Shown here: positions 1 through 6,000 of the stretch, piece after piece
Position numbering within the stretch: position 1 is the stretch's first letter
Layout of the letters: each line of letters begins with the position of its first letter
IMG/VR virus record: IMGVR_UViG_2684623171_000015
Origin: a virus
Lineage: Duplodnaviria > Heunggongvirae > Uroviricota > Caudoviricetes
Length of the DNA stretch: 9,387 nucleotides
Strand: one strand, 5' to 3'
Made by a program: the position numbers

Positions 1-3000
1 TGTCAGTTATCATCTTCGGTTACGGTTATCGGCAGAACGCCCTGCCGCTGACAAGAGCTTATTTGCCTGACCAATCTACTCCACATGATAGATAACTATC
101 ATTTATAACATTTCATTGATTAGTCTTTATTTTTCACTATGTTACAAATAACAACTCCGTCAAAAACAGCGAAATTAACTACACCATTAACTACACCGTT
201 TCACGAACAATATCGAACAACCACGAACAAAGATCAACACGCTTTAACCGTTATCATTTTCCGGCCATCCGTTATGAAGCTGGTGGATGTTCCCCGATAT
301 GGGTATCCCCACCTACCTGGCTTTTTTTCCGGTTAAATGTTAATCAGGCTGGTGGCCTTTACATACCCTTGATCACGGTAATGATGATTCAGGTGCGTAC
401 CTTTTCCCCAGTGGGGTAAAAGCTCCAACCGTAACGATGTTCGTTGTGGTTGCCTTGATGGTCTGCGTGGTCATTATGACCATTCAGAATTTGAAGGGTG
501 ATGTTTCCGATCTCCTCAAATTGAGGATTGTGGAAGAATCAATGGGTTAGTCTTACTTTCCCAACATCCCCCAATGGGGGTTTTCGAAATAATCAATGGG
601 TTAGGCCATAGTGCAATTTTGCACTATGGAACAATTCCAACCAGTTATCGGCATCAGGCCCACCAGCCAACGCAATTTTGCGCTTTGCTTTAATCTCAGT
701 AAGTTACCGCGCCAATTTCCGCAGTCTGTGGAAATTGGGAAGAATCAACGGGTTAGGCTGGTTTCCCCGATGTTCGCCGCTGGCGAATTTCGAAAATATC
801 AACCAGTTACCGCCGTATCCCGATATGGTGATCCCCATATCGAGATTGGATACCTGGCTTTTTTTCCGGTTAAACGTTAATCAGGCTGGTGGGCTTTACA
901 TACCCTTGATCACGGTAATGATGATTCAGGTGCTTCCCCGATATGGTGATCCCCATATCGGGATAGATGCTGGAAAAATCAGCTTTTCGCCAGAACGGTG
1001 ACGGCCTTATCGAGTTTTTGCCATCCGCAATAGGTGATTGCCCTGAACGCTGTAGCGTCATTCTGGAAAAGGCTAACCGCCCCTGATTCGGTTTTTATTA
1101 CCGCCTCATCAGTTGGGGTTATAACCGTGGCTTCAACGTTAATAATCAGCTTTTGAGCGTCTATCAGCATCATGCGATCCGCCTGTTCGCTCACAATTAC
1201 CGGTATTCTCAAAAGCTCTATCTGCCAGAACTCAGCATCAGTAAGCTGTAAGGCGTTTTCTACGGGCAATATTAGCGACGACGTGGAAAGCGTGTTACCG
1301 TTCGCTATGTGCTTTTTGAAAATCTCTATGAAGTTTTCGGCCTCATCAGCACCATTAAGCACGCCCTCAGGGGATACGCCAGCCACCTCCTGATCACTGG
1401 AAAGAAATTTTTTATCTATTTCTTTCACCGATTCCGATGTGATCAAGTCTCTGATCGCTGAATTTGTACCAGGGGTGCTAAATTTGATTAGCTCGTTATT
1501 CAGCATCACAATAGCGCCAAGTTTGCACAATTTTAGCGCACTTTCGTTTACTTCTCCCTCTTTGACAGGGATTTCTTCGGCTTCTTTAAGCCATTTACTA
1601 CCCTTGCCTGATATTGAATGCAATTTTGCGCCAAACGGAAGATTAAGCGCGCTGCTGATTAGCTTGCCTGGTACAGACTGCGAAAAAATATACTCGCCAA
1701 GCTCTCTTACTATCGGCTCTGCCACCAGCGACGGCATGTTATCCGTAGTCATTCTGTTGACGATGGATTTTTCAAGAAATTTCGATACTGCCGGATCATT
1801 TCTTTTCGTCATCTCTATAGCGTCAGCATGGCTAAATTTACACGATGCCAGCACGCTGGCGGCGCGAACTGCTGACACGCCTTTCATGTTTTTACAGATC
1901 ATCTTCTTCCTCCTCCTGGAAGCACGGGTTTAGTGTTTCGTGAAAATATGGCATCAGAACAGCGGCGGCCTGTAACCGTATTTCGGTCGACTGCTGCTTG
2001 TCGTTCATGATTTCCGTGAGTACATCAATAGGGTCTGTGATGTATTCGCTCATAGTTCGCTACCTCAGTGTTTTAAGTCTGTTGGTGGCTTAGGGATGGG
2101 GAACCGATTTGAGTAGACACTAGCGGCATTGAGTTTTTTAACCTCTTTTTTCCCAATGCTGCCGATCTTGCGGTGGGTGAACTGGGCCAGCTTAAACGCG
2201 GCATCTAAAGCCAGTTTTGGATCTGTGTCCATGTTGTCAATCAGTATCCTGCCCATTGCTTTGATGGGGTCGGGTAGGCCGTTATCCATCATCTCAATGG
2301 TGTTAATTGATGCCCGTTCCGGTGTAACTTTTTCGGTAACTTTCTTTGTAACTTTTTTCGGTTTTGTAACCTGAAAAGTTACATCAGAAGTTACAGCCTT
2401 AAGATACTTTTTCACCTCAGGATCGTTGGATAGCTGCCAGCCTTTAACCCTTGCGGTCTTTTCGCTGTATCCCGCATGTATAGCGGCTTCCGTGGGATTT
2501 GCGCCCCTTGATAACGCATCAGCAAACCGCTTTTTTTTGGTCGTTAATGCCATGCAAAAACCTCGTTTTGAGGGGGTGTAACTTTTCGTGTAACTTTTTT
2601 GAAAAGCAAAATTTTCTACGAATGAGACGGGGGGCGGTGTCCAGGGTGATCGACTTTCCGGCCGGAACACTCCCCCCCCCCATGTCATTGCTCACCGAGT
2701 AACGAGATCAGGCCTTCAACTTCATTACTCAGCTTGTTTATTCGTGTCTCAAGCTCTGCGATCTTTTCCATCAATGGCGCTATGGTGTCTCTTGTTTCCT
2801 CGCCAATGGCCTTAATGATGCTTGCCTCGCGTTCTGTGATAGCCATTTGTTATGCCTCACCTGTTGCAATGCCCAGTCTTTCGCGTAACAGCACACGTGC
2901 AAGATGACCTATTGTTGGCGTGGCGGCTCTGCCGTAGATGCCAGCTTCATTCATCCGGCGAATAACATCGAATTGAATTTTTTTAAGCTCGTTTAGGATC

Positions 3001-6000
3001 TCGTGATCAATCATCACGGTAGCGCTTTGCTTTATCTCTTCCACTTTGTTTCCTCCTGATGCTTATCATCTAATAATCAGTATTTTCGATAGATTATAAT
3101 CAATCAACCATTTTTTAAGATATGAGAGATCGAAAAAAAGCCGGATTGCTCCGGCTATGTGTTCACTACTTCGGTTATTCTCCAGCGCTTTTAACGTTGA
3201 TGGTTGTTACCTGTTCCGCTTCGGCAATCTCCCGTTCTGTCAGCGTGGCAAAGTTTGCCGCCGCTGTGGTCATGAATGCGCTTATCAGTTCGGGATTCTC
3301 CTTCGCGTATCCTTCCCGTGTGTGGCGGTCGATGATTTTTATCGCCACCCTCAGCCAGTGCTCTGTAAGGTCAATGGCGCGGTTATGTGGTTTCTTCTGA
3401 TTGTTCAATTTTCCTGATGTGTGCATTTTTATTTTTACCCTCGTGTTTAAAAAGTTTTAGGTTGTGGTGCACCTCCTCTACCTCTCTACCCAATCATCTT
3501 TCAGGTCAGTAATGGCGCGGCTTTCAGATGGGTAGAGGGCTTTCGTGGCCCTCTACCCATCCTCTACCCGCTCCTCACAAACGACCTTAATCATGGTGGA
3601 GGGTGTAGAGGGCTTTTATTTGCCTTCTACCTGCCCCTCTACCCACTTATCATATTGAATAATTTATATTTATTTTCTTTAGGTAGAAGAGGTAGAGGGC
3701 TTTTGTCTAAAATTATAAAAACGCGTCGCAATCATCAGTTGTAATTGCGTTGGTCTGCGTTACTCCCTTAACTCTCCGCGTAATATATTCATGTCCGTAA
3801 ACTTTTGCCGCTGGCTTCATGGCCTTGCTGAACTCAGCCACGTTTAGCGGCTTGCTTCTTCCTGCGTATGCCATAAACGCCAGATAGACGCGGTAAAGGC
3901 TGTTCCTGGTCGTGTACTTCACTGAATCGCCACCGCCACCCATCATCAGGCCGCGCGCTTCCTCCAGAAAATTCAGGAACTGGCAAAACTCAATAACCGG
4001 ATCCGTCTGTTGCTTTATTGCCAGTGCTTCATCACCGTCGCGCTGTTCCAGGAGTAAAGCCCGTGCCTTTTCAGGGTCGGCAAAGTTCGCCAGTAATCGG
4101 CGGATAATCACAGGGATTTCAGCCGCGACCTTCTCCGGCAAATCCTTGTCCTTTTCTGCCTCGCTAACGATATTGTCAAAGCGAAAAATCACCCGACGGC
4201 GTGACACACCTCCGGCCCGCTCGGTGAATATCATCGGGTTGTTGTTGGTCGCCAGTACCACCGCCCTTATTACCGTCGTGAATCGCTTCTCATATTTCGG
4301 GTTAATTTCGACGGGGTCGCCGCCCGTGATTTTCTTGATGCCCGTTCCTTCGCCTGTATATTTCGGTTGGTCAGCCAGGACGATAAGACGACTCCCGACA
4401 ACCTGCGCACGTCCACCAGCATCATCAAGCGATGTCATTTCAGCGCTTACCGTGTTCTGTTTCCCTGCCAGAAGGCTGGCTATGTGCGTGAATGTACTTT
4501 TACCGCTACCGCCGTCTCCGGTGGCCTCAATAAACATCTGCCAGTCGTACCGGTTCGCCATAATCATGTACAGCGCGGCACATATACGCATCATCTTGCG
4601 CGGGTCTTTTCCGGCTGCGTGATCAAGCCATTTGTGAAAGTTTGGCGCGTTGTCGCGAATGTTCTCCCCAGGTGCTGGTGGCGTGTACTCAATGCCGTTG
4701 TGCGTGGTGATCCAGTTCTCCGGCGTGTGCGGGGAAAATTCCCCCGTTTTCAGGTCAAGCGCACCATTGGCGAACGGCAGCAAATCGCCGGACGGCTCCC
4801 CCATTGGTTCGGCAATAACTTTTAACGCTTCAACGGCGTTATTGATCACGCGTTTGCTGAAAGTGGCCCTGTGCTCTGAATAGATCGCCACCATTTCGCG
4901 GCTAAGTTCCATTGTGCTGACCGGACACCATAACCCGCCGCGCCATACGTGAACGATTTCACTTTCAGGATGTACGCAAACGCCATCAAAGCGATCGGAA
5001 AGCAGCTGAGCGCGTTCACTGTCCGCCATCTGCGAAAGTTGCGCCTTTTGCTTTACCGGAAGCTCAACGACCAGACCTTCAGAAAGATTCTGGCGCTCAC
5101 GGGCAAGATATTCGCGCCAGTTCTCCACCTTCTGACCGTGCATTCCTTCGGGGTAAAAATTTGCATCCTGTACACCTGCCGCCGCCAGCTTCTGACCAAT
5201 CTTTTTGGTCTCCACCAAGTCCAGTTCTCCTGCCTGGTACAGCCTTACGCGTTTTTTTCCATCAGGAACAATTTGCAGTGCATCAAGTTCGGCAAGCTGA
5301 TTTGGCCCAAGCCACACAGGAGGCACATTATCGCCGGATGCGGGGCCGTCCTGCTCCTGCCACTGTTTTGCATGTGCCCACGCATCACTACCCGCGAAAA
5401 TAATCACCTCTGTGTCTTTGTGTTTTATTCCGCGTGGCTGTTTTTTTACGTTCGGTGCCAGTTTCATTTTTTACCCCTGAATACGTTAAGCATCTTTTTT
5501 ATTTCCTGAATATTGGCGCGTGCTTTCTCCCTGCTGGTTGGCTTACTGCGGGGCGCTGCCTGTACCAGAGAAAAATCACGGTTGAACTGATAAACAGGCA
5601 TAACGCAATCATATTCGTAGCCTTCACGGCGGTAAGTTACGCGCCGTTCCTCCACGCCCTTAATCATTACCGTGCCGCCGTACTTATCGCGGTAAATATC
5701 CCCGCACATGAATTTAGTGCGAGTTTTGCCGCTGGCAGTTAAGCCAGAATATTTAAGTTTCATTATTTTTATTCTCCGATAGCGTGACCTGATAAGCCGT
5801 TAATCTTCTCTGATATGCTCTCTATTTTGCTGGTGGAAATATTCAGTAATTCAGAAATGGCAAAGGTTAATCTTGTCGTTGACTCGTCACACTCGCAATT
5901 TGTCAGCGATTCAAACCAGACGTTAATAATCTCACTTACGGCATTGTTGTAAGATATTGCGCTTTGTGTGAGTTCATTCAATTCGCAAATTACGCGTTTG

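Follow-up and report, generated by a model that had tools for sequence, protein, structure and literature searches.

Organisation of the island and of its late operon

The window, by which we mean the whole stretch of DNA analysed (9,387 nt), is a phage-inducible chromosomal island (PICI) of Shiga-toxin-producing E. coli, in agreement with an earlier note on this sequence that had taken the element for a satellite. It carries the hallmarks of such islands, namely int, AlpA, a D5-type primase, an iteron origin, terS and a capsid homolog, and all the island genes assigned in the window lie on the minus strand, in a single direction of transcription. From int to the capsid homolog the island covers about 8.4 kb, flanked by cspD and clpS, which is within the size range of PICIs (about 8-15 kb), and its virion gene set is incomplete as in these elements. 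The features of the Gram-negative PICI class (tyrosine integrase, AlpA, primase/replicase with an adjacent iteron origin, unidirectional transcription) are all present, and only terS, the capsid homolog and small genes are found after the origin. The features considered here are the following:

8164-9387, minus strand: int
7078-7302, minus strand: AlpA regulator
3713-5467, minus strand: D5-type primase
3474-3699: ten GGTAGAGGG iterons, adjoining the primase
3139-3156, minus strand: intrinsic-terminator-like hairpin AGCCGGAGCAATCCGGCT followed by a T-run
3045-3138, minus strand: AT-rich spacer, presumed promoter/operator region
3044-2850, minus strand: orf64, 64 aa, GTG start at 3044, first cistron of the late operon
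2846-2685, minus strand: orf53 ("cc53"), 53 aa, ATG start at 2846, RefSeq WP_001018605.1
2600-2684, minus strand: cos-like packaging site, with homology to the spacer between HNH and terS in Stx siphophages
2324-2596, no strand given: seven AAGTTAC repeats with a spacing of 12 nt, lying both ahead of terS and within its 5' half
2065-2553, minus strand: terS, 162 aa, third cistron, 46 % identical to Stx2a_WGPS8 TerS
1892-2053, minus strand: orf53b, a second 53-aa gene, resembling the C-terminal part of TerS
979-1902, minus strand: capsid-protein homolog, 307 aa, last gene of the operon

The hairpin at 3139-3156 closes the upstream replication-module unit, after an 83-aa gene at 3175-3426, and an equivalent hairpin with a T-run stands ahead of the leader gene at four related loci (L006, L020, L036 and L040). 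The AT-rich spacer that follows has a GC content of 26.6 %, against 46.2 % for the whole window, and contains a TATAAT at 3098-3093 with a poor -35 element; a sigma-70 consensus scan of positions 1800-3800 returned no promoter. The TATAAT is bracketed by an 8-nt perfect inverted repeat (TTTTCGAT / ATCGAAAA, 3129-3136 and 3083-3090), which alone is not statistically significant, nor is any other candidate operator repeat in the spacer; 13 of the 94 spacer columns vary among the E. coli variants (13.8 %) and the repeat arms are invariant. No terminator-like site was found on the leader-gene strand from the gene pair to the end of the capsid-like gene.

The two genes after the spacer, orf64 and orf53, are where the earlier note had placed them, on the minus strand and with good Shine-Dalgarno sites. 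That of orf64 (AGGAGG, 3057-3052) stands 7 nt from the GTG and, since an in-frame TAA lies 21 nt before this start, the gene cannot be extended upstream; that of orf53 (AGGTGAGG, 2862-2855) has an 8-nt spacer. The stop codon of orf64 (TAA, 2852-2850) leaves 3 nt between the genes, the ATG of orf53 beginning at the fourth nucleotide past the stop. Codon-position bias and purifying selection identify both as genuine protein-coding genes, and conservation of the reading frames in related islands, which had been named as a check, is found for both. They had been described as unannotated, which is incorrect for RefSeq, where PGAP has both as hypothetical proteins (WP_001018605.1 and WP_000391150.1).

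The start of terS is the ATG at 2553 and not the ATGA overlap at 2688, and the cos-like site lies in the resulting 131-nt spacer between orf53 and terS. The gene orf53 ends 3 nt before the G-run (2681-2672) of this site, which also has an imperfect inverted repeat of 17 nt and, at 2642-2623, the core GGACACCGCCCCCCGTCTCA; the 3' cohesive end reported for the related phage Lys8385Vzw is CGCCCCCCCT (PMC7946995). The motif AAGTTAC occurs nine times in the window (seven times in 2324-2596) against 0.9 expected, and the cluster is a candidate for a set of island-specific, cosB-like TerS binding sites; in a Stx siphophage the corresponding place is taken by GTTAAC repeats. Further downstream, orf53b matches positions 89-125 of phrog_641 (E 3.5e-7), with conservation extending to L006 and L023. 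In the phage, protease and capsid are fused in one protein of 645 aa, and the capsid homolog aligns to its residues 291-625.

Because of homology and co-residence, the helpers of the island are likely to be cos-type Stx/lambdoid siphophages of the 1717 / BP-4795 / 2851 type. The same Stx siphophages have counterparts of the cos site, TerS, the capsid homolog and the N-terminus of orf53, that of the last being the protein encoded after the portal gene, here called post-portal. The post-portal N-terminus was found in 92 phage records and the cos-like element in 66, in both cases almost wholly from Stx/lambdoid phages, with one Salmonella phage. The inducible cos siphophage Lys8385Vzw comes from strain RM8385 (PMC7946995), in which the island is present too.

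The leader genes in related islands

In islands of Hafnia, Klebsiella, Salmonella and Serratia assemblies, the same operon begins with the pair or with only the first of the two genes. These islands and those of E. coli share a recurrent gene order, from the leader gene through the slot gene(s), cos and (terS) to the capsid homolog. What follows the leader varies by island and may be terS, a portal, or a homolog of the capsid or tape-measure protein. As the first two cistrons after the terminator and the AT-rich spacer, the pair plausibly heads the transcription unit that contains terS, as had been suggested; to call this unit specifically a terS operon is too narrow, the same leader genes also preceding operons that lack terS and hold one of the other three genes.

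In E. coli, Hafnia, Klebsiella, Salmonella and L022, orf53 adjoins cos, and several terS-less islands keep the pair beside it; in Serratia-type islands a 798-aa tape-measure homolog is placed between the pair and cos. All islands examined have orf64 and orf53 together, with the single exception of L023, the one island found to have its own portal homolog in the slot, which contains orf64 and the capsid homolog without orf53.

Evolution and predicted fold of orf64

Purifying selection acts on orf64 (dN/dS 0.10-0.24), in which the variable columns at codon positions 1, 2 and 3 number 9, 1 and 20. In E. coli, the share of variable columns is 15.4 % in orf64 and 13.8 % in the promoter spacer, against 4.3 % in orf53 and 4.6 % in cos, and a comparison of two E. 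coli variants gave a dS of 0.54 in orf64 and of 0.03 in orf53. Since orf64 so exceeds orf53 in dS and the spacer is as variable as orf64, the promoter and orf64 move as one cassette, and from this recombination as a unit we infer a role for orf64 as regulator of the operon. Its identity to relatives outside E. coli is 21-42 %.

The AF2 model of orf64 has an extended N-terminus and two helices, the N-terminal strand-like segment (TVMID) alternating hydrophobic and polar residues, and in the homologs the N-terminal arm is basic and helix 2 is capped by T-P-T/S. Its size, the succession of a strand-like segment and two helices and the T-P-T cap recall the ribbon-helix-helix (RHH) regulators (CopG/Arc/MetJ superfamily; TraM N-terminal domain), as do the basic arm of the homologs and the position of the gene directly downstream of the region to be regulated. 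Unlike RHH families, it has an unusually long helix 1 (20 residues), an extra loop and no RHH profile match: none of the RHH families in Pfam or NCBIfam was matched at E <= 1, the PDB profile search gave a thioredoxin at E 1.5 as its sole match, and the hhalign values against CopG (E 0.073) and Arc (E 0.15) do not place it in these families by profile. Going by the model, we would tentatively regard orf64 as probably an RHH-like DNA binder.

Relationship of orf53 to a phage post-portal protein

The 53 residues of orf53 are predicted to form a single continuous helix (residues 5-51, pLDDT 95), with a 3-4 hydrophobic repeat that can be read in the sequence from I22 to L50. Its family comprises 36 clusters, all of 47-61 aa and, wherever the source names the organism, from Enterobacterales. 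The last 11 residues (EVEGLISLLGE) are invariant at the nine loci compared, which belong to different islands, while third codon positions vary at 9 of these 11 residues and 2-5 different codons are used at 10 of them; as the residues are fixed while the codons vary, the conservation of orf53 goes beyond chance.

Using the family profile, hmmsearch retrieved the ORF that follows the portal gene of Stx2a_WGPS8 (E 2.7e-6), and when the family was compared with five phage N-termini by hhalign, the probability was 96 % and the E-value 4.7e-9, over 34 columns with 44 % identity. The N-terminal ~34 residues of the phage protein (MTERELSIIRALGEEF...) align to residues 3-32 of orf53, which has the conserved N-terminal helix M-x-ERE-x-S-x-I-x-x-x-GEE of the post-portal family. 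PHROG 1289, 8767 and 2271 are matched by 11, 7 and 4 of the 36 members respectively, always through this same N-terminal segment (for PHROG 1289, profile positions 1-47). The phage protein itself has 347-461 aa, and its gene shares an ATGA overlap with the stop codon of the portal gene. The protein is built from a coiled coil, repeats of ~53 aa in tandem and, at the C-terminus, a carbohydrate-binding-like domain with weak resemblance to CBM5/12. Some phage records annotate it as portal.

The N-terminal segment is thus common to orf53 and the post-portal family (PHROG 1289 / 8767, the C-terminal half of PHROG 2271; BP-4795 ORF59). By contrast, orf53 has neither the tandem repeats nor the C-terminal domain nor a neighbouring portal gene, and it ends in the EVEGLISLLGE motif, of which no counterpart was found in any of the phage records. 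Judged from its sequence, it is a derivative fragment of the post-portal family and no full member of it. The homology would span some 30 coiled-coil residues, and coiled coils are a sequence class prone to spurious similarity.

Proposed role of the pair and alternative explanations

The earlier note had suggested that small proteins in this position often redirect packaging or interfere with the helper. This is borne out in part for orf53, the N-terminus of which is homologous to a head-module protein of the likely helpers, and not for orf64, which is more like a DNA-binding regulator. The explanation that we favour, if tentatively, is that the pair are the leader genes of a late operon for packaging and capsid redirection, orf64 being an RHH-type regulator and orf53 a helper mimic. 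According to this proposal, orf64 would be a small dimeric RHH-type protein that binds the AT-rich region before its own gene and so sets the expression of the operon, by autoregulation or by helper-responsive control. Derived from the N-terminal helix of the helper post-portal protein and extended by its own invariant tail, orf53 would act at the portal vertex, a placement suggested by the gene order and by the records that name the post-portal protein portal, where it would either sit in the site to which the helper protein binds or co-oligomerise with that protein. Its action would shift assembly to island-sized particles built with the island capsid homolog, or damage helper virions, and the invariant tail would make contact with another partner, itself highly conserved.

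A more specific version, which we hold to be doubtful, makes orf53 a new class of hijack factor that mimics a portal-associated anchoring helix, docking at the helper portal vertex or poisoning the oligomer of the helper protein through the copied N-terminus, and orf64 a dedicated RHH-type switch of the late operon. In staphylococcal islands the late module is under LexA and helper control; if this version is true, orf64 would be the first regulator identified for the late module of a Gram-negative PICI.

Both genes might instead be purely regulatory, orf64 as an RHH autorepressor and orf53 as its coiled-coil co-repressor or anti-repressor with no action on helper proteins, for which models exist in the RHH plus coiled coil of Mnt or TraM, here split in two, and in the antitoxin/partner logic of RHH operons. 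Their adjacency at 3 nt, their co-occurrence outside L023, the RHH-like predicted fold of orf64 and the very different cargo genes that follow them are what such a pair would lead one to expect, but the homology of the orf53 N-terminus to a phage structural-module protein is not. Moreover, the separate recombination histories in E. coli (dS 0.54 against 0.03) indicate that the two are not tightly co-adapted, L023 has orf64 without orf53, and the orf53 tail is invariant while orf64 diverges to 21-42 % identity outside E. coli, and we consider this explanation unlikely.

Less probable still is that orf53 acts as an internal scaffold like CpmB, a small helical dimer whose C-terminal tail binds the capsid protein of the helper or of the island and, with the capsid homolog, sets a smaller capsid. 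This reading takes the post-portal similarity as incidental coiled-coil resemblance. SaPI CpmB is a precedent for a small scaffold, and the single long helix of orf53, its conserved C-terminus and the ~310-aa capsid homolog that always accompanies it in the operon are in keeping with such a role; against it, L023 has the capsid homolog without orf53, the helper capsid gene encodes a 645-aa protease-capsid fusion, and in HK97-type systems the scaffold role is usually part of the capsid protein. In addition, we found no similarity of orf53 to any phage scaffold, and the N-terminal hhalign match (96 % probability, 44 % identity) is specific.

We give even less credence to the possibility that, along the lines of the packaging redirection suggested in the earlier note, the pair sets packaging specificity at cos as a functional analogue of Rpp, orf64 binding nearby and orf53 bridging to the helper terminase/HNH nuclease. 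It would account for the adjacency of orf53 and cos in the five island types named above, for their equal conservation in E. coli (4.3 % and 4.6 % variable columns) and for the terS-less islands that retain the pair beside cos. However, the tape-measure homolog parts the pair from cos in Serratia-type islands, orf64 co-varies with the promoter and not with cos, and the island is already provided with a TerS and a repeat set of its own; PDB profile searches with both families gave no Rpp chain, and among the phage packaging and late-region ORFs searched the post-portal ORF was the only match of either family.

Finally, the name "antitermination protein NusG" borne by many orf53 family members in RefSeq and GenBank is the sole support for a NusG-type antitermination factor, which can practically be dismissed: NusG is defined by NGN and KOW domains, orf53 is a single 53-aa helix with neither, and no NusG or KOW model was matched in Pfam or NCBIfam at E <= 1, which refutes its membership of the family. 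The name looks like a propagated mis-annotation, comparable to the "UvrB" on another PICI (PMC11773190).

Comparison with known satellite systems

The island resembles those of the EcCICFT073 type in being a Gram-negative cos PICI with a helper-like cos core, different flanking repeats and small proteins beside cos, and it differs from them in having a full TerS homolog and helpers that are HNH-type and HK97-like rather than lambda/80. In EcCICFT073-type cos PICIs, Rpp is a winged-helix protein derived from TerS and forms heterodimers with the helper TerS, and a crystal structure of RppC is reported to have been solved (PMC6739421). We assume that this structure was present in the PDB copy searched; with no Rpp chain retrieved and different predicted folds, neither orf64 nor orf53 is Rpp-like.

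Like the SaPI copies of helper proteins, the late operon, which follows the replication module, encodes altered helper head and packaging proteins, and its helper-like set consists of TerS, the capsid homolog, the mini-protein resembling the TerS C-terminus and orf53. Satellite copies of helper virion proteins include the capsid homolog Ccm of SaPIbov5, SaPI TerS and SaPI CpmB, the tail of which is like the helper scaffold. No sequence relationship was detectable between orf53 and CpmB, Ppi or Pti proteins and, to our knowledge, the phage post-portal protein has not been described as a satellite target. Unlike the SaPI cases, orf53 keeps about 30 residues of the helper protein and adds to them an unrelated, invariant tail.

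Island layout and leader genes

The window has the layout of a Gram-negative PICI (PMC6092414), and an identical copy of its island, flanked by cspD and clpS, is present in E. coli strain 9000. The relevant genes are on the minus strand throughout, including terS, a second 53-aa gene (orf53b) and a 307-aa capsid-protein homolog, which are found together with two small leader genes, the 64-aa orf64 and the 53-aa orf53:

8164-9387, minus strand: tyrosine integrase
7078-7302, minus strand: AlpA regulator
3713-5467, minus strand: D5-type primase
3474-3699: iteron field of ten GGTAGAGGG-like repeats in both orientations, directly after the primase gene, presumed to be the island replication origin
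Minus strand: 83-aa gene, PHROG 1231
3156-3139: terminator-like hairpin, upstream of orf64
3044..2850, minus strand: orf64, GTG start, preceded by AGGAGG at 7 nt and by an in-frame stop at 21 nt
2846..2685, minus strand: orf53, ATG start, with AGGTGAGG 8 nt upstream

Only 3 nt separate the stop codon of orf64 from the start of orf53. The 94-nt spacer after the hairpin has a GC content of 26.6 %, against 46.2 % for the window, and contains a TATAAT (3098-3093) with a poor -35; a consensus scan found no sigma-70 promoter, and no terminator-like site was detected on the minus strand from orf64 to the end of the capsid homolog.

Elsewhere in the window, a 257-aa gene in the interval between int and alpA (7394-8167, minus strand) could not be assigned convincingly to any family of Pfam, PHROGs or PADLOC. 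Positions 1-979, downstream of the last island gene, are rich in repeats, among them 88-nt direct repeats (314-401 and 851-938, 95 % identical) and 27-nt inverted repeats (816-842 and 939-965), for which att remnants and host repetitive elements are candidate natures.

Both leader ORFs are genuine genes

An earlier note had located the two ORFs correctly; its term "unannotated" reflects that reader's own track only, as RefSeq lists both as hypothetical proteins. The codon-position bias agrees with the minus-strand frames, and plus-strand ORFs within 2685-3120 were rejected on that ground. As the note had proposed, we checked conservation in related islands, where both frames recur, except that L023 is without orf53, and codon bias and the orf53 tail support coding. 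Among 13 distinct E. coli versions of orf64, the variable columns fall on codon positions 1, 2 and 3 in the proportions 9/1/20, and dN/dS is 0.10-0.24. The orf53 family comprises 36 protein clusters, every one of 47-61 aa, with E. coli, Hafnia, Serratia, Klebsiella, Citrobacter, Salmonella and Enterobacter as named sources, and nine columns at its C-terminus are invariant in 36/36 clusters. The 11-residue tail EVEGLISLLGE is identical in all nine loci, from different islands, that were compared as DNA, while 10 of its 11 residues use 2-5 different codons and 9 of 11 third positions vary; selection thus acts on the protein, not on the DNA. We conclude that orf64 and orf53 are genuine genes.

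Searches of Pfam, NCBIfam, PADLOC and Rfam returned nothing meaningful for either ORF or their DNA, and no published description of either family was found in the literature searched. Many 53-57-aa relatives of orf53 (P0001, P0002, P0015 and others) bear the database name "antitermination protein NusG", which is unsupported: no NusG domain is detectable in orf53 of the window, and the name is apparently a mis-annotation that has spread between records. There was likewise no support for a toxin-antitoxin or defence role, which was also considered. By tblastn, orf64, orf53 and the invariant orf53 tail matched nothing in 50,697 phage records; a species-representative genome collection scanned with TerS and with the orf53 alignment yielded no relatives, viral and metagenome scans recovered near-identical E. 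coli copies and one divergent contig, and an exhaustive representative search for orf64 gave three true relatives only.

Gene order in related islands

Using the contigs of the orf64 relatives from this exhaustive search and of the orf53 relatives, we compared the contexts of the leader genes. All complete contexts proved to be PICIs, carrying int and AlpA as well as a primase or RepA-type helicase, and in each the orf64 homolog is the first gene behind a hairpin, a T-run and an AT-rich spacer.

Genes following the orf64 homolog in related islands
E. coli, Hafnia: orf53, cos, terS, small gene, capsid homolog
Klebsiella, Salmonella, L022: orf53, cos, capsid homolog
Serratia type (L020, L040, L041): orf53, 798-aa tape-measure homolog, cos, capsid homolog
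L023: portal homolog, cos, terS-like gene, capsid homolog

The genes that follow vary, so the leaders head the late morphogenesis operon generally; the earlier placement at the head of "the terS operon" holds as far as they lead a late operon, and terS itself is not constant, being missing from this order in the Klebsiella, Salmonella, L022 and Serratia-type islands. Both the small-ORF region and the terS-capsid region are present, each at a query coverage of at least 80 %, in 220 of 5,426 complete E. coli genomes, so that the two most likely travel as one unit. The carriers, among those listed, are mostly of the Shiga-toxin-producing serotypes O157, O26, O111, O103 and O121, and island relatives occur in Klebsiella, Salmonella, Serratia and Hafnia.

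In related islands, other virion genes of helper type share the operon of the leader genes: the tape-measure homolog (L020 6407-8803, L040 7181-9577; PHROG 2854, E 1.5e-170), a full portal homolog (L023 5881-7146; Pfam Phage_portal, E 3e-80) and, in L022 (4038-4622), a protein similar to lambda tail assembly protein I. Tail genes are unexpected on a classical small PICI.

A cos-like site and the probable helper phages

The 131-nt spacer between orf53 and terS and the region beyond it contain the following features:

2600-2684, minus strand: cos-like packaging site, made of a G-run (2681-2672), an imperfect 17-nt inverted repeat and the core GGACACCGCCCCCCGTCTCA
2324-2596: seven AAGTTAC repeats spaced by 12 nt, in both orientations, located upstream of terS and within its 5' half
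1892-2053, minus strand: orf53b, overlapping the start of the capsid homolog
979-1902, minus strand: capsid homolog

A longer, 207-aa terS starting at an ATGA overlap at 2688 was dropped; PGAP places the start at 2553, where the alignment with phage TerS begins. The length of the cos G-run varies between the compared island copies, from 5 to 13 G, and differs even between near-identical E. coli copies. The cos-like element is found in the interval between the HNH endonuclease gene and terS of 66 phage records, which are those of Stx1a and Stx2c converting phages, 1717, 2851, BP-4795, JLK-2012 and Salmonella FSL SP-016. The cohesive end of the related phage Lys8385Vzw is CGCCCCCCCT (PMC7946995). 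In the window, CGCCCCCCGT lies at 2636-2627, and O103:H11 strain RM8385, the host of Lys8385Vzw, carries the same island type. The island TerS is 46 % identical to that of one such phage, and alignment of the capsid homolog to the 645-aa protease-capsid fusion of Stx siphophages covers the capsid part of the fusion, residues 291-625 (23 % identity, E 5e-21). Judged by these sequence comparisons, the helpers appear to be HK97-like siphophages carrying stx1 and stx2c, which the island would parasitise.

AAGTTAC is expected 0.9 times by chance in the whole window, and in homologous phages the equivalent position behind the shared cos core is occupied by GTTAAC repeats, which suggests that the island TerS may recognise an island-specific site beside a cleavage site of helper type. 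In a metagenomic island copy (L028 5162-5230), the left half of cos is of the phage type ATCATCCGGCGAAAAAAACGATCGCC instead of the island type, suggesting possible island-helper recombination at cos. The product of orf53b matches the terS family PHROG 641 (profile positions 89-125, E 3.5e-7) and is thus a TerS C-terminal-like mini-protein, although BLASTP gave no alignment between it and the island's own TerS despite the PHROG profile linking both. The Hafnia island and L023 also conserve orf53b, whose product could be a decoy for the helper terminase.

orf53 shares the first helix of a phage post-portal protein

AlphaFold2 models orf53 as a single helix (residues 5-51, pLDDT 95), in which hydrophobic residues recur regularly in a 3-4 pattern between I22 and L50. 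We compared the orf53 family profile with all reading frames of three regions of two Stx phages (1717 and Stx2a_WGPS8) and obtained one clear match (E 2.7e-6), to an ORF that begins in an ATGA overlap with the end of the portal gene and encodes a product starting with MTERELSIIRALGEEF. This post-portal protein is a separate coding sequence of 347-461 aa in five phages, and hhalign of the orf53 family against the five N-termini gave a probability of 96 % (E 4.7e-9, 34 aligned columns). PHROGs 1289, 8767 and 2271, which correspond to the post-portal protein, are matched by 11/36, 7/36 and 4/36 members of the orf53 family, over the same segment every time. The link is visible only via family profiles. 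The N-terminus occurs in 92 phage records (L042 7573-8796 and 91 others) of the same kinds as those with the cos element.

Beyond this N-terminus, the post-portal protein is made up of further coiled coil, four or five tandem repeats of ~53 aa and a C-terminal domain with a weak likeness to a carbohydrate-binding module; no protein of solved structure was detected as its sequence relative. Database records label it inconsistently, as "portal protein", pseudogene or hypothetical. Of this head-module protein of the helper, orf53 therefore retains the first helix alone, to which it adds a tail of its own that occurs in no phage record. We infer that orf53 would compete or co-assemble with the helper post-portal protein at the binding site of the latter, which, from gene order, is probably the portal vertex. 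The only island with its own portal homolog in the slot, L023, is without orf53, a single case that fits the portal-vertex idea.

orf64 as a putative regulator

The assignment of orf64 to the ribbon-helix-helix (RHH) fold has no sequence-profile support (hhalign against CopG and Arc was not significant), and Foldseek searches against PDB and BFVD were not significant; orf64 is therefore only probably, and not established as, RHH-like. In the phage regions searched, the orf64 profile identified no related ORF. Two features point to a putative action of orf64 at its own promoter: in every case it follows the AT-rich spacer as the first gene, and spacer and gene diverge together, apart from orf53. 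Between two E. coli island variants, dS is 0.54 for orf64 versus 0.03 for orf53, and variable columns amount to 13.8 % in the spacer and 15.4 % in orf64, against 4.3 % in orf53 and 4.6 % in cos. Promoter and orf64 thus recombine as one cassette, apart from orf53-cos-terS, and the break in dS together with an indel in the 3-nt spacer (2847-2849) places a recombination junction there.

As candidate target DNA, islands of Klebsiella and Serratia and two metagenomic islands have in common an upstream block of ~60 nt with a GTGTTGC...GATCAACAC inverted repeat, and E. coli has instead an 8-nt perfect inverted repeat around the TATAAT; neither repeat is statistically compelling.

Alternative readings and significance

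That the two genes form a purely regulatory pair is possible, but this would leave unexplained both the phage-derived N-terminus of orf53 and the separate recombination histories of the two genes. The helix of orf53 and its constant association with the capsid homolog would also agree with a CpmB-like scaffold, which we regard as unlikely, since L023 has the capsid homolog without orf53. Still less probable is a role in cos specificity by analogy with Rpp, the packaging-redirecting protein of other cos PICIs: the leader pair often adjoins cos, but the tape-measure gene intervenes in Serratia-type islands and PDB searches gave no Rpp chain. Of the suggestion that small proteins in this position are often packaging-redirection or helper-interference factors, the helper-directed part gains support for orf53 from its helper-like N-terminus, as a putative helper-directed role, whereas orf64 is more likely a regulator.

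To our knowledge, the control and use of late genes in Gram-negative PICIs are known for one type only, the Rpp islands (lambda/80 helpers). The present analysis singles out a candidate regulator and the DNA that it may target, a 53-residue protein of which one half is helper-derived and the tail invariant, and, as the probable target of this protein, a previously unremarked phage protein, the post-portal protein. If the island parasitises stx1/stx2c siphophages, the leader genes could affect both island spread and the yield of Shiga-toxin phages. The capsid homolog of the window is comparable to Ccm, a satellite's own copy of a helper capsid protein, and the orf53 finding belongs to the same known theme, in which satellites encode modified versions of the virion proteins of their helpers.
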